From Candidatus Latescibacterota bacterium (GTDB taxonomy: Bacteria > Latescibacterota > UBA2968 > UBA8231): a stretch of 64,000 bases of DNA. The notes under the pieces were generated by a model, which worked only from the letters and a program-made list of their open reading frames with translations, did no database searches and had not been told where the DNA came from. A program made the position numbers and the translations under genes. Of this stretch, positions 1 to 19,600 are shown one piece after another. The stretch covers positions 3,328,001 through 3,392,000 of the forward strand of contig OZ241867.1 in assembly GCA_965203175.1 (NCBI GenBank). The letters run 5' to 3'. How positions within the stretch are numbered: position 1 is the stretch's first letter; each line of letters starts with the position of its first letter.

Positions 1-212
1 AGGGGGGATGCAGACACGACGGTAGCGACGATCGAGGAGAGTTTGTGAGAAGCCGTAGTGAGATGCTCGACAGAATCGTCCCACTCCTACTTGCCTTGGC
101 GCTAGCACACAAAATCCAATAGCACCAATTCTCTGGAAGCGCATTATGCGTGACATTCTCTTGGCGATTTGATGTTGGCGGCCCCACGCGGGGTGTTTTC
201 CTGTGAGGTAAT

Positions 213-5698: not shown

Positions 5699-7459
5699 TT
5701 ATCTAACCAACATCGTCTTGCCCACGAACTCCGCCTCTGCGTCTTCGGTTTTCAACCTATAGAAGTACAAACCGTCGCTGAGTTCGCGGCCGGCATCGTC
5801 TCGCCCGTCCCAGACGATACTATAGTTGCCGGGATTCTGATGGCCCAAAGCAAAGGTTCGAACGTGCTGTCCGGCTACATCGTAAATAGCTAACTCAGCC
5901 GATGTGGCGGTGGCTATTTCATACGAGATGGTCGGGGTAACGGGTTTGAGCGCGCGAAGTTTGGCCTTCAGTTCGGCGGGCCATTCGTCCGGATCGGTCG
6001 CCTCTCGCCAAGGCATGCGCTGACGGACCTCCTCGGCGAATAGAAGCTGGCGTTCCAACTCTTCGGACCATTCCTCTTCGGACCATTCGTCCGGATCGGT
6101 CGCCATTGCCTGCTGCCAGATCCTATTATCCGAACTCGGCTTAGCCGCGCCTTTGGCCTTCGCCGGTTGCGGTTCCGTGGCGATGATCTGATTGACGAGC
6201 CCTACTTGACGGGCGATATCCATGATCTGGACGATCTGACTGTGCGTGGCGCGCTCGTCTCCTTGGATAAAAATCATCGTGGTGTTGTCCAACTGTTGTC
6301 TCTTCGCCTGCAATTCCTCTTTGAGGGTTGTAAACGTCACTGACTTGTTGTTCAGCTTCATGTTGCCGTCTTGATCCACGATGAGAAAGATATTCTTCTT
6401 ACTCGACTCAGTCGCGACTTTGGACACTTTCGAAGTGATGCCACAAGAGGGCAGCGTCACGGCGGCTAGGGGGCATAGCAGTACCGCCGCTAACACGCGC
6501 GCCCGCGTGCCCATCCGGCGCGCACTGCCGCCAAGCGTCCTGCGGATTCTCAGTGCCAAATCCGATTCGGTTGCTGCAAAAGCGTTCATCGTGGGGATTC
6601 TCCTCATCAAAGGGTTTAAGTGAGCCACCTGTTCGGCGACGTGAGCTAGGCCGCGCGCATAGGCTTCTGAGCGGCCGGTGACGCATACGACGAGATCGTC
6701 GCAGGCTTGTTCGGCTTCCCGCCGCAACATGCGACCGCACAGCCATACGGCGGGGTGGAAGAACAATACAGCGGAGACTAGTCGGTGCAGCAGCATCGTG
6801 AGGTTGTCCCAGCGGCGCACGTGTGCTAGCTCGTGCGTGAGGACCAAGGAGAGTTCGTCGGTGCGCAGTTTCTCCACGAGATCGGTGGGCAATACAATGA
6901 TCGGTCTCAGAATGCCCAGCGCCATCGGCGAGTTGATAGAAGGGGAGGTTGCCACTTCGATCTTGGGATAGCCATCGAGTATCCGACGTGCTTGCTGCAG
7001 GGCGTCGAAAAGCGGGCCGTCGTGCTGTACCTGCGCTTGTTGTCGCAAGTGCCAGACGATGCCGTAGCCGATCAGAAGTCGCCCGATGAGCAGCGCCGCA
7101 CCTATTAGCCACAGTATTACTCCCCAGCCGGCTGTAGTAAGTTGCACACTACTTGTGGCAATTGTCGGAGAAGCCGCTACTTGCATCGTTGGATGCTCGA
7201 CGTGCAAGGACGGGGCATTCCAATCAGGTCCCAAGAGTGATACCAATGGCGTGAATAGCGAATAGGGCGAACTGACCGCGATGGAAACGAGCGGCTTGAG
7301 CAGCACGACCGCCCACAACAGGTGACGCAAGGCCGGCGACTTTATTGGCAATAGGCGACTGGTGACTAGGACTAAGACCGCCAGCGCTGCTAACTCGATA
7401 CTTAGCTGACTAAACCAACCGAATAGCTGGCTACCTAACTCGTTTAAAGCCGCGTTCAT
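5699..7459 (-). CDS. BlaR1/M56 metallopeptidase with ExbD-like and FlgD-Ig-like C-terminal domains (paralogue 2)
   Basis: HELAH zinc motif, FFHPAVW, EQACDD; ExbD-like IQGDERATHSQIVQIMDIARQVG; WDGRDDAG..GLYFYRL. Confidence 0.85.
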   Translation of the reverse strand: MNAALNELGSQLFGWFSQLSIELAALAVLVLVTSRLLPIKSPALRHLLWAVVLLKPLVSIAVSSPYSLFTPLVSLLGPDWNAPSLHVEHPTMQVAASPTIATSSVQLTTAGWGVILWLIGAALLIGRLLIGYGIVWHLRQQAQVQHDGPLFDALQQARRILDGYPKIEVATSPSINSPMALGILRPIIVLPTDLVEKLRTDELSLVLTHELAHVRRWDNLTMLLHRLVSAVLFFHPAVWLCGRMLRREAEQACDDLVVCVTGRSEAYARGLAHVAEQVAHLNPLMRRIPTMNAFAATESDLALRIRRTLGGSARRMGTRARVLAAVLLCPLAAVTLPSCGITSKVSKVATESSKKNIFLIVDQDGNMKLNNKSVTFTTLKEELQAKRQQLDNTTMIFIQGDERATHSQIVQIMDIARQVGLVNQIIATEPQPAKAKGAAKPSSDNRIWQQAMATDPDEWSEEEWSEELERQLLFAEEVRQRMPWREATDPDEWPAELKAKLRALKPVTPTISYEIATATSAELAIYDVAGQHVRTFALGHQNPGNYSIVWDGRDDAGRELSDGLYFYRLKTEDAEAEFVGKTMLVR

Positions 7460-7535
7460 CGCGGGTCTCCTTTTCTGCGCTCAAGGGTTGGGTCCAGTTC
7501 CTCCCGGATCGCCGTCAATTCCTCGTCCGTGAGCG
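7456..7535 (-). pseudogene. Duplicated 3' fragment of blaI preceding the second M56 gene
   Basis: 80 bp closely matching 9883-9962 (blaI 3' end, including the RBS of the M56 gene). Confidence 0.85.
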
Positions 7536-7582
7536 ACTAGTCATCTGGCAGTTTAACCATCTTGCGGGTGCACGTTTGATGG

Positions 7583-9886
7583 TTATCTAACCAATATCAT
7601 CCTGTACGCTATATGCTTGTTCGCTTCTCTGTCGGATTTCAATGAATAGAAGTACACGCCGTTGCTGCGCTCGCGGCCGGCATCGTCCCGTCCGTCCCAG
7701 ACGATGCTATATTTGCCGGGACTCTGATCGCCCAAAAAAAAGGTTCGAACGAGCTCTCCGGCTACATTGGAAATAAATAATTCTTCAGCCGGTGAGGCGG
7801 TGGCTATTTCATACGAGATATTACCGGGTTTGAGTGCGAGGAGCTGGGTTTTGAGTTCGTCAGACCACTCGTCTGAATCGGTCTCTTCCACCTGCCGCCA
7901 AAGCCTTCTCTGACGGACCTTCTCGGCGATTTCCTCGATGGTACTGTCAGGCTCAAGCCCGAAAAGCAGGGTTTTGAGTGCGAGGAGCAGGGTTTTGAGT
8001 TCGTCAGACCATTCATCTGGATCAGTGGCCATCGCCTCTTGCCGGATTTTATCCCAGCTCTGACGGACCGCATAGGCGATTTCCTTGATGGTTCTGTTGG
8101 GTTTGAGTGCGAGGAGCTGGGTTTTGAGTTCGTCGGACCATCTATCTGGATTAGTGGCCATCGCCTCTTGCCAGATTCTGTCATGCCGACTTGGCTCAAC
8201 CGCTACTTTGGTCACTTCCGGTTGCGGTTTCGTGGCCACTAACTGATCGACAAGCCCTACTTGGCGGGCGAAATCCATGATCCCGGCGATCATTCCGTGC
8301 GGAGCACGCTCGTCTCCTTGGATGATAATCATCGTAGTATTGTCCAATAGTCGTCTCTTCGTCCGCAATATATCTTTAAGATCCGTAAACGCCACTGATT
8401 TGTCGTTCAGCATTATATTGCCGTGCTGGTCCACGACGATAAAGGGATTTTCCGCGGTAAGGTTATCGTCATTCCGACTCAACTCAGTCGCGACATTGGC
8501 CACCTCCGGAGTAGTGTCACAAACGACCATATCGACGAGCCCTACTTGGCGGGCGACATACATGATCTGGACGATCTGCCCGTGCGGGGTGTGCCCGTCG
8601 CTTTGGATGACAATCATCGTAGTATTGTCCAACAGTCGTCTCTTCGCCTGCAGTTCTTCTTTAAGCGTTTCAAAAGTCACCGACTCGTCGTTCAGCTTCA
8701 TGTTGCCGTCTTGATCCACGACCAGAAGGATACGCTCATCCTGACCCGACAGCAGTCGTCTCTTCGCCTGCAATTCCTCTTTGAGGGTCGCAAACGTCAC
8801 TGGTTTGTCGTCTTGCTTCACGAGGATAAAGGGACGCTTATCCTGACTCGACTCAGCCGAGATTTTGGATACAGAGGGTAGGGTTATGGCGGCTAGGGGG
8901 CATAGCAATACCGCCGCCAACACGCGCGTCCGCATGCCCATCCGGCGCGCACCGCCGCCAAGCGTCCTACGAATTCTCAGCGCCAGATCCGATTCCGCTG
9001 CAAAGGCGTTCATGGTGGGGATTCTCCTTATCAAAGGGTTTGAGTGGACCACCCGTTCAGCGACGTGAGCCAAGCCGCGCGCATAGGCTTCTGAGCGGCC
9101 AGTGGAGCATACCACCAGATCGTCGCAGGCCTGTTCGGCTTCCCGCCGCAACATGCGACCGCACAGCCACACAGCGGGATGGAAGAATAATACAGCGGAG
9201 ACTAGTCGGTGCAGCAGCCTTGTGAGGTTGTCCCAGCGGCGCACGTGTGCCAGTTCGTGCATGAGGATCAAGGCGAGTTCGTCGGTGCGCAGTTTCTCTA
9301 CGAGATCGGCGGGGAAAACAATGATCGGTCTCAGGATGCCCAGCGCCATTGGCGAACTGATAGAAGGAGAGATCGCCACCTCGACCTTGGGATAGCAGTC
9401 GAGCGTCCGACGCGCTTGCCGCAGAGCGTCGCAAAGTGGCCCGTCGTGCCGCACTTGTACCTGCTGCCGCAAGCACCAGACGATGCCGTAGCCGACCAGA
9501 ATCCGCCCGATGAGCAGCACCGCACCTGCTATCCACAGTATCGCTCCCCAGCCGGCTGTAGTAAGCGGCACACTACTTGTGGCAATTGTTGGAGAAGCCG
9601 CTACTTGCATCGTTGGGTACTCGACGGGCGAGAATGCGAGGGTGTCCCGACTGGGTTCCAAGAGTGACACGAACGGTGTAAATAGCGTATAGGGCGAGCT
9701 GATTGCGATGGCGACGAGCGGCTTGAGCAGCACGATTGCCCACAACAGGTGGCGCAAGGCCGGCGACTTTATTGGCAATAGGTAACTGGCGACTAGAACT
9801 AAGACCGCTAGCGCCGCTAGTTCGATACTTAATTGACCAAACCAGCCGAATAGTTGGTTACCTAACTCGTTCAAAGCCGCATTCAT
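7583..9886 (-). CDS. BlaR1/M56 metallopeptidase with ~2.5 ExbD-like domains, helical repeats and FlgD-Ig-like domain (paralogue 1)
   Basis: HELAH motif; repeated VDQxGN.LND.SV.F..LK; three DxWSDELKT repeats; WDGRDDAG; ATGA overlap with blaI. Confidence 0.85.
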   Translation of the reverse strand: MNAALNELGNQLFGWFGQLSIELAALAVLVLVASYLLPIKSPALRHLLWAIVLLKPLVAIAISSPYTLFTPFVSLLEPSRDTLAFSPVEYPTMQVAASPTIATSSVPLTTAGWGAILWIAGAVLLIGRILVGYGIVWCLRQQVQVRHDGPLCDALRQARRTLDCYPKVEVAISPSISSPMALGILRPIIVFPADLVEKLRTDELALILMHELAHVRRWDNLTRLLHRLVSAVLFFHPAVWLCGRMLRREAEQACDDLVVCSTGRSEAYARGLAHVAERVVHSNPLIRRIPTMNAFAAESDLALRIRRTLGGGARRMGMRTRVLAAVLLCPLAAITLPSVSKISAESSQDKRPFILVKQDDKPVTFATLKEELQAKRRLLSGQDERILLVVDQDGNMKLNDESVTFETLKEELQAKRRLLDNTTMIVIQSDGHTPHGQIVQIMYVARQVGLVDMVVCDTTPEVANVATELSRNDDNLTAENPFIVVDQHGNIMLNDKSVAFTDLKDILRTKRRLLDNTTMIIIQGDERAPHGMIAGIMDFARQVGLVDQLVATKPQPEVTKVAVEPSRHDRIWQEAMATNPDRWSDELKTQLLALKPNRTIKEIAYAVRQSWDKIRQEAMATDPDEWSDELKTLLLALKTLLFGLEPDSTIEEIAEKVRQRRLWRQVEETDSDEWSDELKTQLLALKPGNISYEIATASPAEELFISNVAGELVRTFFLGDQSPGKYSIVWDGRDDAGRERSNGVYFYSLKSDREANKHIAYRMILVR

Positions 9887-10290
9887 CGCTGGTCTCCTTT
9901 TCTGCGCTCGAGGGTTTTGTCCAGGTCTGCCCGGATCGCCGTCAATTCCTCGTCCGTGAGCGCTTGGCCGTTCAGCAGTTGGCTGACGAGTGCTTCGGCC
10001 GAGCCGGCAAAGAACGAGTCGATGACTTCGCCCAGCGAGCGCCGTCCCATGTCCTCGCGCGTGACCACCGGGCGATAGAGATCGGACCGGCCTTCTCGTT
10101 CCGATATCACAAAGCCCTTATCGCGCAGGATGCGCATTATGGTCAGCACGGTATTGTAAGCCATCGGCTTGACGGCTGTTAGCCGCTCTTGCACCTGCTT
10201 GACGGCTGCGGGCGACTCGTCCCACAGGACGTTCATAATGAGGGTTTCGAGCGGGGTCAGCTTTTTGTCGGGTTTGTCCTTGGTCGCCAT
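9883..10290 (-). CDS. BlaI/MecI/CopY family repressor
   Basis: LTPLETLIMNVLW, AYNTVLTIMRILRDKG; ATG at 10290 with AAAGGA RBS. Confidence 0.92.
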   Translation of the reverse strand: MATKDKPDKKLTPLETLIMNVLWDESPAAVKQVQERLTAVKPMAYNTVLTIMRILRDKGFVISEREGRSDLYRPVVTREDMGRRSLGEVIDSFFAGSAEALVSQLLNGQALTDEELTAIRADLDKTLERRKGDQR

Positions 10291-10301: not shown

Positions 10302-10365
10302 TCAACTAAGAATTTAGTTGAGTATACTCGACGGCAATTGGTTTGTCAACTAAAATTTTAGTTGA
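10302..10365 (-). promoter_or_regulatory. sigma70 promoter (TTGACA-17-TATACT) for blaI-M56 with two 20-bp palindromic operators
   Basis: -35 at 10344-10349, -10 at 10321-10326 (minus strand); TCAACTAAGAATTTAGTTGA 10302-10321 and perfect TCAACTAAAATTTTAGTTGA 10346-10365. Confidence 0.85.
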
Positions 10366-10476: not shown

Positions 10477-10863
10477 ATGCCCGCTACTCAGGTATTCTTC
10501 TTCCAGGATAAACAAGATATTCCAGTGAGAAGTTGGTTACAGGAATTGCGGCGAACAGACAAACGGGTTTATGCCAAGTGCGTCGCACGCATCCGCTCGC
10601 TAGCCCAACTCGGCCACGAACTCCGCCGTCCACTGGCTGACTATCTGGAAGAAGACATCTACGAACTGCGCATCCGCCGCGGTCGGGTCAACTATCGCAT
10701 TCTTTACTTCTTCCATGGTCAGAACATAGCGATCTTGACTCATGGGCTGGTCAAAGAAGACGTGATTCCCCAGGCAGACCTGACGCGGGCGATCAAACGG
10801 AAAGAAGCTTTCCTGAAAGATCCGGAGAAACACACCTACGAGGAGAATATTTCTCATGCCTAA
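10477..10863 (+). CDS. Type II TA toxin, RelE/ParE (Gp49-like)
   Basis: LRRPLADYL..IYELR..NYRILYFF..LTHG; overlaps downstream XRE gene. Confidence 0.85.
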   Translation: MPATQVFFFQDKQDIPVRSWLQELRRTDKRVYAKCVARIRSLAQLGHELRRPLADYLEEDIYELRIRRGRVNYRILYFFHGQNIAILTHGLVKEDVIPQADLTRAIKRKEAFLKDPEKHTYEENISHA

Positions 10864-11170
10864 GACGCGAGATGCAACCCAGATTCTCGACCGGATGACG
10901 GGCGACGATGAGGAAATGCGGCAACTGATTGCCGAGGAAACTCTTAACGCCGAAGTGGCTCGTTTGATCTACGAAGCACGGACAGTAGCGGGGCTAACTC
11001 AAGCCGAATTGGCCGAGCGAATCGGCACCAAGCAACCAGTGATCGCACGCTTGGAAGATGCCGATTACGAAGGACATTCGCTGTCTATGCTCCAGCGCAT
11101 CGCCCTTGCATTGAACCAGCGCGTCGAACTCCACTTCGTTCCTCTTGAGAAAACCTCAGAAGCGGCATAG
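10856..11170 (+). CDS. XRE-family HTH antitoxin (HigA-like)
   Basis: GLTQAELAERIGTKQPVIARLE HTH_3 signature. Confidence 0.88.
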   Translation: MPKTRDATQILDRMTGDDEEMRQLIAEETLNAEVARLIYEARTVAGLTQAELAERIGTKQPVIARLEDADYEGHSLSMLQRIALALNQRVELHFVPLEKTSEAA

Positions 11171-16663: not shown

Positions 16664-19600
16664 AAGCACCTGTGTCTTGGATGGCGAAGAATCACGTCGC
16701 CGCCAATCTGCTGATGGGTTTCATCATGTTGAGCGGTCTGTTTGCCATGATGCAGACCAAGAAAGAAACCTTCCCCGAGATGTCGCTCGACCAGGTGCAA
16801 ATCCAGGTGCCCTACTTGGGCGCGACACCAGCCGAGGTCGAAGACGCCGTCTGCAAGCGCATTGAGGAACGGGTGCGCGGCCTAGAGGGAGTGCGCCGCG
16901 TGCGCTCTACGGCCGCTGAGGGCATGGGCGTAGTCAGCATCGAGCTAGAGCGCGGTGCCGACATGGACAAGCTCCTCGACGACATCAAAAACGAGATCGA
17001 TCGCATCGACACCTTCCCCGCCGAGATCGAAGAGCCGGTCATCAAGGAGTTGACTCGCCGCAATCAAGCCATCGACGTGGTGCTCTACGGCGATGTCGAG
17101 GAGAAGGCCCTCAAAGTCGCCGCCGAGCTCGTGCGCGACGACCTGCGCAGCAGCGGCGTTATTTCGCAGGTCGAGCTCAAGGGCGTGCGCGTTGATGAGA
17201 TTGCCATCGAAGTCTCCGAAGAGGCCCTGCGGCGCTACAGCCTAACCTTCGCGCAGGTCGCCGACGCGGTCCGCCGCACGAGCATTGACCTACCCGCCGG
17301 CAGCGTCGAGAGCGAGGATGGCGCGATATTGCTCCGCACGCAGGGGCTGATGCGCGTGGGACGCGAATACGAAGAGGTCGTCGTCCTCACCCGTCCCGAC
17401 GGCACGGCCCTCAAGCTCAAAGATGTGGCCACGGTCGTCGATGGCTTTGAGGATACCGATCTCGTCTCGCGCTTCAACGGCCAGCCAGCGGCCGTGGTGC
17501 AGGTCTTTCGCATTGGGGACCAGAACGCCCTCGACATCTCCGCCTATGTCCACCAGTACATTGAAGACAAACGCTCAACCCTGCCGGAGGGAATCCACAT
17601 CGGCTACGCGCGCGACGATGCGCGCATCCTGCGCAGCCGCATCGATTTGCTGATCCGCAACGCCTGCCTCGGTCTGGTGTTGGTCTTCATCTGTCTGAGT
17701 TTTTTCCTCGACTTGCGCTTGGCCTTCTGGGTGATGATGGGCATCCCCATCAGCTTTTTGGGGGCCTTCGTGCTGATGCAGCCTTTCGACGCCTCGATCA
17801 ACATGCTTTCGCTGTTCGCCTTTATCGTGGCCTTGGGCATCGTCGTGGACGACGCGATCATCGTCGGCGAAAATATCTTTTCCCACCGAGTGCAGGGGAA
17901 ATCCTTCGGCCGTGCCGCTATCGATGGCGCGCTCGAAGTGAGCACGCCGGTCCTGTTCGCGGTGATGACCTCGATTGCGGCCTTTATGCCGCTGTTTTTC
18001 GTCGAGGGCATGATGGGCAAGTTCATGTCGGTCATCCCCGTAATCGTCATCTCAGTGCTCCTACTGTCACTGATCGAGAGTCTGTTCATTCTGCCGGCGC
18101 ACCTGTCTTCTAAGGGGGACGGACCACTCAGCCGCTTGTTTCGCCGGGTTTTCATCCGCCCACTCGATTGGCACGCCCGGGTCGTCGTTTCCTTTGACCG
18201 CGGCCTCAAGCACGTCATCCGCAACGCCTATCAGCCCACGCTGCGCTTGGCGCTGGCCCATCCGATTTCCAGCACCGCCCTAGCTTTATCGCTGATGCTA
18301 TGTACCGCCGGACTGGTCGTCGGCGGCCATATCAAGTTTGTATTCATGCCCGAGATCGGGGCCGATTGGGTGACGATATCGGTCAACATGCCCCAGAGTA
18401 CCACGGCGACCCAAACCGCCAAGGTCGTGCGACACATCGAAGAAAAGGCCATCGTCCTGCGCGACCAGATCGACGCCGAGCGTGAGGGCGGGGATTCAAT
18501 CTACCGCAATTTTTTCACTTACATCGGCGACCAACCCTCGGCCCGGCGTTCTTCCTTTGCAAGCACTCCAAGTGCTGGTGGCCAAGGCCATCTAGCCGAA
18601 ATTACCATCGAACTTTTACCTTCCGAGGAGCGCGATCTCGACAGCGCGGAGATTGAGGCGCGGCTGCGCCAACTGGTCGGCGAGGTACCCGGCCCCGAAT
18701 CCATTGTTTTTTTCTCGTCGCTGTTTTCCGCTGGCAATCCCATCGAGGTCGAGTTGGCCTCGGACAACTTTGACCAGCTCTTGTTGGCCGTTGATCGCCT
18801 CAAGGGCAAAATCGCCGAGTACGCCGGCACTGGCGATATCCAAGACAGCTTTGAGGAGGGCAAGCTGGAGATGAAACTCCGGCTCAAGCCCCAAGCCCGC
18901 ACCCTCGGCCTCACGCTCGCCGATCTAGCCCGCCAGGTGCGCCAGGGCTTCTACGGCGACCAAGCGCTGAGATTCCAGCGCGGCTCGGACGATGTGCGGG
19001 TGATGGTGCGCTACCCCAAAGACGAGCGCCGGAACTTGGGCGATGTGCGCTCGATGCGCGTGCGCACGCCTGCGGGTGCCGAGGTGCCCTTTGCCGAGGT
19101 GGCTACCGTCACCATCGGCCACGCCTCTGCCTCCATCCAGCGCACCGATGGCCAGCGCGTCGTGCGGGTGAGTGCCTCTGTAGATGACCAAGTCGCCAAT
19201 GCCGACGAAATCAACCGCGATCTCGAAGCGTCGTTCCTGCCTGCGCTGGTGCAGGAGTATCCCGGTCTCGGTCTGCGCTACCGCTTCGCCGGCGAGCAGC
19301 AGGAGCGGCAGGACTCGCTGATGAGCCTGCGCCTCAACTTCATCATCGCCCTTGCCGCCATCTACGTGTTGCTGGCCGTGCCATTCAAATCGTACACGCA
19401 GCCCCTCGTCGTCATGAGCGCGATTCCATTTGGCATCATTGGCGCGGTTTGGGGGCATTTGATCATGGGCTTGGACTTGGCGCTTTTGAGCCTGTTTGGG
19501 ATCGTCGCGCTCTCGGGCGTGGTGGTCAATGATTCGCTGGTACTGCTGACCTTCTACAACCAGATGCGGCGCGAGGGATCGTCGCACGAGGACGCTCTAG

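Follow-up and report, generated by a model that had tools for sequence, protein, structure and literature searches.

A Shine-Dalgarno-like motif and in-frame ATG within the predicted self-cleavage loop of two BlaR1-type M56 genes from a Latescibacterota bacterium

The membrane sensor-protease BlaR1 of S. aureus cleaves itself in cis between Ser283 and Phe284, within a loop (residues 271-289) that joins helix α8 to the domain-swapped helix α9; L280-S281-H282-S283-F284 are described as the P4-P1' residues, and R294 on α9 as completing the active site (PMC9834060). M56 modules also occur with other C-terminal parts, as in the M56-TonB fusions TonB1 and TonB10 of B. thetaiotaomicron, which are presented as uncharacterised and suggested to signal (bioRxiv 10.1101/2023.07.07.548152), and atypical BlaIR pairs, namely PvmSR of P. 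aeruginosa and the mycobacterial BlaIR, are reported to regulate something besides β-lactam resistance (bioRxiv 10.64898/2026.08.03.742534). Here, we analyzed a stretch of 64,000 nucleotides from a Candidatus Latescibacterota bacterium (contig OZ241867.1, positions 3,328,001 to 3,392,000; hereafter the window), in which two genes on the minus strand encode M56 proteins of 767 and 586 aa next to a gene for a BlaI-type repressor. Both M56 genes contain, just behind the protease domain, a Shine-Dalgarno (SD)-like motif followed by an in-frame ATG, which an initial annotation had read as the possible start of a BlaI-controlled exported effector nested in the sensor gene. The analysis does not support such an effector: the short form would be membrane-anchored, and the segment in question corresponds to the standard BlaR1 layout.

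We consider it probable that the segment reflects an ordinary BlaR1-type protein architecture that carries a latent, sometimes exapted start site. Both genes would encode BlaR1-type membrane sensor-proteases in which a periplasmic module of ExbD-like and FlgD-Ig domains replaces the β-lactam-binding sensor. The AGGAGA and the ATG would be codons of a short loop (Arg286-Arg287 ... Met291) joining the protease to the next helix, with Met291-Asn292-Ala293|Phe294 occupying the P3-P2-P1|P1' positions of the aligned BlaR1 self-cleavage site. The basic stretch behind it would form an α9-like helix with the conserved active-site Arg, and the hydrophobic stretch the final membrane helix that carries the C-terminal domains outside of the cytoplasm; with loop, α9-like helix and last membrane helix, the amino acid pattern would be explained by protein function. 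If the proteins behave like BlaR1, as we infer, self-cleavage rather than a second start would release a C-terminal fragment that lacks the protease and is just three residues shorter than the proposed isoform. At the nucleotide level, the site would be a good latent ribosome-binding site, and in related genomes it serves as the actual start of paralogues that have lost their 5' part and with it the protease.

The M56 genes and the segment behind the protease domain

On the minus strand, both M56 genes read (T/A)AGGAGA, nine nucleotides and an in-frame ATG (at 6589 and 9013), exactly where the initial annotation had placed them. The gene for the 586-aa protein (paralogue 2, 5699-7459) contains CCTTTGATGAGGAGAATCCCCACGATGAAC, with AGGAGA at 6604-6599 coding for Arg286-Arg287 and ATG at 6589-6587 coding for Met291; the SD-like GAGGAGA, spacer and ATG fall within 6587-6610, and the longer stretch around this ATG reads TTGATGAGGAGAATCCCCACGATGAAC. 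The corresponding sequence of the 767-aa gene (paralogue 1, 7583-9886) is CCTTTGATAAGGAGAATCCCCACCATGAAC, with AGGAGA at 9028-9023 and ATG at 9013-9011 (Met292); here the SD-like TAAGGAGA, the 9-nt spacer and the ATG span 9011-9030, and the longer stretch is TTGATAAGGAGAATCCCCACCATGAAC. Counted from the AGGAG core, TAAGGAG or GAGGAG is followed by 10 nt and the ATG, giving a 7-mer (TAAGGAG) or a 5-mer match to what we take to be the anti-SD sequence, and the true start of the same M56 gene has AAAGGAG and 7 nt. The window itself is without rRNA, and Rfam and tRNA scans of it yielded no match. Translation from the internal ATGs would give products of 296 aa (586-aa gene) and 476 aa (767-aa gene), as initially calculated. 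The view that AGA and AGG codons are uncommon in the core genes was right as well, as they account for 9.2% of Arg codons (127/1378) in the 49 other long open reading frames (ORFs) of the window; inside the M56 genes they are not rare (9/39 and 17/59 Arg codons).

Pfam assigned both proteins to Peptidase_M56 (PF05569, E 3.4e-36 and 4.5e-37), and ExbD and FlgD_ig domains were also found in both. Paralogue 1 consists of a BlaR1-type protease, linker, membrane helix, repeated ExbD-like domains and FlgD_ig; paralogue 2 has a BlaR1-type protease (Pfam match to residues 18-276), linker, membrane helix, one ExbD-like domain (343-430) and FlgD_ig (517-573). A search with residues 1-345 against 1.84 billion representatives gave 89,195 matches at E ≤ 0.001, and most of the best 150 align through residue ~338. 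From these 150, the 136 sequences that have HExxH and at least 140 residues after it were aligned with MAFFT; the wider M56 subfamily is named by the pattern 'RRLLVNTFAAAES'. The 136 representatives conserve 'N-x-F-A-A-x-E-S-(D/N)-..-R-(I/V)-R-R-I-L', a hydrophobic helix and 'G-L-P', and this linker and helix precede C-terminal parts that vary greatly in length (up to 2590 aa). At the Met291 column Val was found in 45 sequences, Ala in 33, Met in 21, Leu in 18 and Ile in 6, so that 115/136 carry a residue other than Met. In the linker, two neighbouring columns have Arg as their most frequent residue (58/136 and 45/136); MAFFT places them one column 3' of R286/R287.

A profile built from 46 family sequences, of which the shorter ones were picked for a manageable alignment, matched S. 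aureus BlaR1 (PDB 8exp) with an E-value of 2.3e-12, with profile positions 27-326 on BlaR1 residues 13-310. The family motif 'v-n-t-f' falls on BlaR1 S281-H282-S283-F284, the invariant R304 aligns with BlaR1 R294 and, by counting alignment columns, the invariant D254 with D246. Within the 46-sequence alignment, H209, E210 and H213 of the HExxH zinc site do not vary, and the downstream Glu ligand E250 is conserved to at least 90%. By this alignment, Thr290-Met291-Asn292-Ala293|Phe294 of the 586-aa protein map onto P4-P1'. The predicted self-cleavage loop of paralogue 2 thus comprises residues 289-295 (P-T-M-N-A|F-A; 6575-6595, minus strand), with the predicted scissile bond A293|F294 and F294 encoded at 6580-6578, on the basis of the profile alignment, an AlphaFold 2 (AF2) model and the BlaR1 site as described (PMC9834060). 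The helix that follows, ESDLALRIRRTL (residues 296-309; 6533-6574, minus strand), is the likely equivalent of BlaR1 α9 with R304 according to alignment and AF2.

The AF2 model of residues 1-345 had a mean predicted local distance difference test score (pLDDT) of 85.7 and a predicted template modeling score (pTM) of 0.83. Only residues 289-295 formed a low-confidence loop (pLDDT < 50), lying between helices assigned to 264-287 and 291-309, and a further helix was modeled at 318-334. The six best Foldseek matches of the model in the PDB were BlaR1 chains with TMq values of 0.41-0.44, which is modest, as expected for a monomer model compared with a domain-swapped dimer. Self-cleavage at A293|F294 is predicted from this correspondence, and the C-terminal domains would lie outside of the cytoplasm.

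The hydrophobic stretch that the initial annotation had compared to a long signal peptide is rather the last membrane helix behind the α9-like helix (AF2 helix 318-334), of the kind found after the protease in all BlaR1-type proteins, and is conserved in the 136 diverse M56 representatives. This equivalent of TM4 covers residues 318-337 of paralogue 2 (6449-6508, minus strand), its 'GLP/LPS' end being kept in the wider family, and residues of about 318-337 of paralogue 1 (8876-8935, minus strand), as judged from the alignment with paralogue 2 and its AF2 model. The basic residues R304, R306, R307, R314, R315, R319 and R321 stand ahead of, or at the beginning of, this helix. A lipobox has the consensus [LVI][ASTVI][GAS]C behind a short n- and h-region. 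The LPSC at the end of the helix in one copy, initially noted as lipobox-like, deviates from it by the Pro at -2, and its Cys lies 49 residues after Met291. Moreover, the residue after T[LM]PS is Cys in only 75/120 close homologues (Val in 33, Tyr in 11, Met in 1) and in 16 of 29 orthologous genes (see below).

The outside part is matched only by ExbD (PF02472, E 4.5e-10 and 4.9e-16) and FlgD_ig (PF13860) in Pfam, and its sequence matches in the PDB were likewise ExbD and FlgD. In the 767-aa protein (7583-8870) it comprises at least two ExbD-like stretches by Pfam and several acidic 'ATDPDEWSDELKTQLLALKP' repeats, whereas a single ExbD-like domain and a smaller number of acidic repeats are present in the 586-aa paralogue, so domain copy number varies between the paralogues. 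In tblastn, segments over residues 321-431 (window 6170-6430) share 59-64% identity with the stand-alone ExbD proteins of the phylum. The two can be aligned only from about residue 354 onward, past the membrane helix; N-terminus and membrane helix differ. The conserved Asp of the ExbD membrane helix corresponds to D25 of E. coli ExbD. Stand-alone ExbD of the phylum has MIDVVFQLLIFFMV ('MIDVVF') at this position, and the M56 membrane helix RVLAAVLLCPLAAVTLPS is without Asp. The 59-64% identity suggests a fairly recent capture of a housekeeping Ton-system domain as sensor module. The SD-like motif and ATG as a relic of a captured exbD start were considered and rejected, because stand-alone ExbD begins with MAERVEKKELTMPDLTPMIDVVF and resembles the M56 proteins only from residue ~354.

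The internal start site in the window, in orthologues and in short genes

The two M56 genes are paralogues with 77% identity overall, a synonymous divergence (dS) of 0.36 and a ratio of nonsynonymous to synonymous divergence (dN/dS) of 0.23 over codons 1-345; as they are recent paralogues, their agreement in the motif counts as one observation, not two. To obtain a base rate, 51 greedily chosen longest ORFs of at least 100 aa served as uncurated stand-ins for genes, and ATGs beyond codon 60 were counted. Among 235 internal in-frame ATGs, 33 have a 4-mer SD core and seven (~3%) AGGAG or GGAGG between -20 and -5; the seven include the Met291/Met292 pair and Met482 of the same 586-aa gene. The five internal ATGs other than the pair with AGGAG or GGAGG within 20 nt are located at window positions 18871, 19321, 56832, 6016 and 3877. 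At the rate of 5/233 among the other ATGs, a gene with 12 such Met codons would by arithmetic show one about 22% of the time. A 4-mer SD core precedes 22/51 longest-ORF starts, so SD use in the window is real but moderate. Judged on the window alone, the motif is not more than chance, and internal SD-ATG pairs of such strength are common in this genome.

A single contig scan yielded 74 loci (L001-L074), of which L001-L025 hold 27 M56 genes; together with those of the window, 29 genes with 56-100% identity over residues 1-345 were compared. L026 is without such an M56 ORF, and L027-L074 mostly hold stand-alone exbD genes. AGGAG is kept in 17/29 genes, GGAG only in 9/29, and the SD is lost in 3/29. 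Codons 286-287 read AGGAGA in 16 genes, AGGAGG in one, CGGAGA in seven, CGGAGC in one, GGGAGA in one and AGTAGA in three; codon 286 alone is thus AGG in 17, CGG in eight and AGT (Ser) in three. The encoded dipeptide in 120 close proteins is RR in 98, SR in 15, RG in four and SK in two, with one unmatched. Codon 291 is ATG in 26 genes, GTG in two and TCG in one. Parsimony on a FastTree tree of the 29 genes assigned four synonymous and four amino acid changes to codon 286, and in this tree the AGT genes of L003, L009 and L016 are not one another's nearest neighbours. The initial annotation had named CGN codons or a missing Met in homologues as evidence against a start site, and the alignment points both ways: CGG stands for AGG in 8/29, AGT-AGA occurs in 3/29, codon 291 is not ATG in 3/29 and the residue is not Met in 115/136 of the wider family, while at least GGAG is present in 26/29 and ATG in 26/29.

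For synonymous changes, columns with a Met or Trp majority or with a majority residue in fewer than 18/29 genes were set aside. Codons 286-292 showed 2.0 synonymous events per codon versus 3.6 gene-wide (rank 28 of 302 windows); codons 285-292 ranked 20/286 and codons 286-290 49/322, and synonymous heterozygosity ranked 41 of 310 windows. Synonymous change at the SD patch is therefore only mildly low (7th-15th percentile in the 29 genes). Arg287 is AGA in 27/28 with one event, which is no better kept than Arg243, Arg263 and Arg314 (CGC, one event each).

Protease-less genes were found in related genomes. A search with the hypothetical 296-aa product revealed numerous predicted proteins whose first residue is the equivalent Met, 22 of them by pattern match; the DNA context was seen for one of these 22 MNAFAA-starting proteins (P0344, in L009), and several of the others come from contigs of 1-2 kb and may be gene-calling artefacts at contig ends. 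Eight loci gave a full-length match to the C-terminal domain of a ~180-aa gene, and seven of them carry an intact ORF of 179-185 aa. The L016 copy is a variant in which blaI is fused to an M56 remnant, the copy in L014 is partial, and the L017 match to the C-terminal domain of the short genes is the C-terminus of a full-length M56 gene. The short proteins comprise the α9-like helix, the membrane helix and a small domain, which gave no match in Pfam. Their ORFs are intact in 7/7 genes of two types. Type A genes (L003, 1069-1608; L009, 1069-1611; L010, about 1090-1643) begin with MNAF, and the M56 part upstream is a deleted or frameshifted remnant, of ~23 nt past the stop of the preceding gene in L003 and of ~105 nt or more in L009 and L010. 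In type B genes (L001, 766-1305; L002, 748-1287; L006, 763-1302; L012, 745-1302), the first 12 blaI codons (MATRNKPDKNLT) stand in place of everything up to Leu303, and each gene is preceded by the blaI promoter together with its two palindromic operators. A descent of the short from the full-length genes is supported by the M56 remnants found upstream of type A genes. Pairwise dN/dS among the short genes was 0.49-0.92 versus a median of 0.24 for M56 codons 1-345, so constraint on them is weak. The N-terminal type does not track the similarity of the C-terminal domain (the L001 type B gene is closest to the type A gene of L009, and the L003 type A gene to the type B genes of L002 and L006), which points to repeated deletion or recombination. 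The SD and ATG are at least a usable start, as the short genes show, and protease-less forms arose repeatedly. The window was without a short gene by tblastn. As for the initially proposed protease-less C-terminal product, such a form has counterparts in the family, as BlaR1 cleaves at the aligned S283|F284 and the stand-alone ~180-aa genes of L003, L009 and L010 start at the same ATG; its interpretation as an exported BlaI-controlled effector is not supported. Downstream of the short genes, a 427-aa protein with an AhpC/TSA redoxin domain is encoded (read in L009, and by position in L001).

Several observations weigh against an explanation at the protein level only. In the type A genes, the identical AGGAGAATCCCCACG-ATG serves as the start, and no other start is available to them. 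At least GGAG is found in 26/29 genes down to 56% protein identity, and ATG or GTG at codon 290 or 291 in all 29; the most distant genes (L021-L025) have the ATG at codon 290, 7 nt from the SD, which is the spacing of the true start, and the SD core of the internal site is that of the true M56 start, AAAGGAGAC. Averaged over the 29 genes, no other stretch within the first 345 codons has codons as rare as 281-288 (among them TTA, CCT, TTG/TTA, ATA, AGG and AGA; rank 1 of 338-340), with the codon table of the window as a stand-in for all 29 genomes; in the two genes of the window, the rank of this stretch varies with the size of the codon window (4-10 of 336-340). In the other genes of the window, ATA accounts for 10% of the Ile codons, TTA for 4% of the Leu codons and AGA for 4% of the Arg codons. 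The GC content of the 60 nt around the ATG is 0.49 versus 0.59 for the gene, and these 60 nt are less stably folded than the remainder of the gene in all 29 genes, with a mean z of +1.62 (true start, +0.80). Relative to mononucleotide shuffles z was +1.07, and the mean fraction of GC-matched windows of the same gene that fold as weakly or more weakly was 0.16 (0.22 for both window genes); the weak fold is largely compositional.

These features may be taken to mean that translation of the operon mRNA is initiated at Met291/292 as well, giving a membrane-anchored, protease-less protein of α9 helix, membrane helix and ExbD/FlgD-Ig domains, which could pair with the full-length sensor and tune its signalling. 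The match of 7 or 5 nt to the anti-SD at a spacing of 10 nt with an in-frame ATG, its retention as at least GGAG (26/29) with a start-type codon at 290/291 (29/29), the AT-rich patch of rarest codons, the weak fold (mean z +1.62 versus the rest of the gene, +1.07 versus shuffles) and the use of the same site as working start of stand-alone short genes in three loci, with 7/7 short ORFs intact, all fit this explanation, and the short form would have an obvious partner, since BlaR1 is described as a dimer domain-swapped via α9 (PMC9834060). Nevertheless, we regard internal initiation in the full-length genes as a possibility on the unlikely side, because the SD is lost (AGT-AGA) in three genes that are not each other's closest relatives, codon 286 has undergone four synonymous changes (AGG 17, CGG 8), the synonymous rate lies only at the 7th-15th percentile, the Met is not conserved outside of the clade (21/136 of the wider family), the fold of the window genes is unremarkable among GC-matched windows (0.22 as weak or weaker), such motifs occur at 3% of internal ATGs, and self-cleavage would already give nearly the same product. 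Somewhat more doubtful still is its elaborate form, a selected second start by which each blaI-M56 operon would make both the full-length sensor-protease and a protease-less α9-TM4-ExbD/Ig protein, the two pairing via the domain-swapped α9/TM4 interface and thereby setting the signalling threshold; the stand-alone ~180-aa genes, starting at the same ATG or behind BlaI operators, would be its hard-wired version. Evidence for selection on the nucleotides as a start site in full-length genes is suggestive at best.

Roles of the nucleotides other than initiation, taken together with hitch-hiking, are quite improbable. The patch of rare, SD-like codons might slow ribosomes that have just completed the protease domain, while the last membrane helix has yet to emerge, and so aid folding or membrane insertion. 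Codons 281-288 being the rarest-codon window averaged over the 29 genes is in line with this, but that average takes the codon table of the window for all 29 genomes, the synonymous rate is not significantly reduced and ribosome pausing by SD-like sequences is disputed, so we give this explanation very little weight. Even slightly less credit is given to hitch-hiking, in which SD and ATG would be selected only in the short paralogues and spread to the full-length genes by recombination or gene conversion in tandem blaI-M56 arrays. The arrays are visibly recombinogenic, with a blaI remnant upstream of the second M56 gene of the window, short genes that have either the Met291 start or the BlaI N-terminus, and N-terminal types discordant with C-domain similarity; against it, the window was found to hold no short gene, the motif is also present in the distant L020-L025, whose loci gave no short-gene match by tblastn, and the M56 remnants upstream of type A genes favour a descent of the short genes from full-length ones. 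A BlaR1-type architecture with a latent, sometimes exapted start site is the reading that we prefer.

blaI, its operators and rearrangement of the cassette

The gene for the BlaI/MecI-type repressor (9883-10290, minus strand) was assigned by Penicillinase_R (PF03965, E 2.8e-29) and by matches to MecI and BlaI in the PDB. It shares an ATGA with the 767-aa M56 gene, in which its stop codon and the start codon of the M56 gene overlap. The likely start of blaI is the ATG at 10290 (MATKDKPDKK) and not the mechanically listed TTG at 10305, which lies inside the promoter-proximal operator palindrome. The promoter region (10303-10364, minus strand) contains two palindromic operators (CAACTAA-N4-TTAGTTG, 10347-10364 and 10303-10320) that bracket TTGACA-17-TATACT (10349-10321). 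A pattern search found only these two palindromes in the window versus 0.04 expected, and the same operator pair is present upstream of blaI or short genes in 17/74 loci. In a consensus scan, TTGACA-17-TATACT scored 11 of 12 and was the only minus-strand site with 10 or 11 of 12 between 5600 and 10500; a weaker 9 of 12 match is located inside blaI (10182-10153). The scan revealed no minus-strand promoter-like site inside the M56 genes, and an internal promoter for a short transcript was rejected on this consensus scan only. A resemblance of the loop 'MNAFAA' to the 'DSFFAGS' site of the window BlaI as cleavage mimicry was likewise rejected, because MecI N101|F102 aligns to BlaI Q104|L105 and not to DSFF.

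Directly upstream of the 586-aa gene, 81 nt (7456-7536, minus strand) are a remnant of the 3'-end of blaI (SLTDEELTAIREELDPTLERRKGDPR*), which supplies the SD AAAGGAGAC of this gene; the same SD is also found upstream of the M56 start in orthologues. Judging from these sequences, the array derives from duplication of a blaI-M56 cassette and subsequent deletion of most of the second blaI. In L003 and L009, the blaI ~40 nt upstream of the M56 start (3001) is an internal-deletion remnant, in which ...VLWDESPA is fused to KGDQR*; these remnants are another sign of frequent deletion within the arrays. Divergently from the blaI promoter, a Gp49-like gene (PF05973) overlaps an XRE-type helix-turn-helix gene (10477-11170, plus strand), and the pair looks like a HigB/HigA-type toxin-antitoxin system.

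Comparison with known systems

The main value of the analysis lies in a correction: the supposed effector, nested and exported, is the usual BlaR1 arrangement of self-cleavage loop, helix and last membrane helix. Of interest are BlaR1-type sensors with an outside part copied from the ExbD of the cell itself, and a family that repeatedly sheds its protease domain to leave short membrane proteins, made either from the latent site or as fusions to the first 12 blaI codons behind BlaI operators. If it were true that the full-length genes also make the short form, a one-component proteolytic signalling switch would be tuned in a new manner. Among bacterial proteins, ClpB, IF2 and CheA-short are known cases of two isoforms made by means of an in-frame internal start. 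The window genes share with them an in-frame SD and ATG inside a longer ORF and a short product without the N-terminal domain; the isoforms of ClpB, IF2 and CheA have been seen experimentally, whereas the site in the window is known from sequence, is imperfectly conserved and has a competing explanation at the protein level. A literature search joining 'BlaR1' and 'internal translation initiation' found no paper, and one aimed search on M56, ExbD and BlaR1 found no description of M56-ExbD fusions.

With S. aureus BlaR1/BlaI (PDB 8EXP-8EXT) and MecR1/MecI, the locus has in common an M56 gluzincin domain that contains HExxH and residues equivalent to E242, D246, Y261 and R294, an α8-α9 loop with Phe at the aligned P1', a membrane helix after α9, the last two by alignment, and an adjacent BlaI-type repressor with paired palindromic operators. 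It differs in that the Pfam and PDB matches of the window proteins do not include a penicillin-binding (class D β-lactamase-like) sensor; their outside part instead consists of one to three ExbD-like domains, acidic 'DPDEWSDELK' repeats and a FlgD-Ig domain. Self-cleavage is a prediction in the window proteins, the window BlaI has Q104|L105 at the position aligned to MecI N101|F102, and the window genes have no β-lactamase or PBP2a-type target gene nearby.

The M56-TonB fusions, as far as they are described (bioRxiv 10.1101/2023.07.07.548152), resemble the window genes in combining an M56 N-terminal module with a periplasmic domain borrowed from the Ton system, the borrowed domain being ExbD-like in the window genes. 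PvmSR and the mycobacterial BlaIR are characterized in their preprint as lacking any outside sensor domain (bioRxiv 10.64898/2026.08.03.742534), whereas the window genes carry a large ExbD/Ig module.

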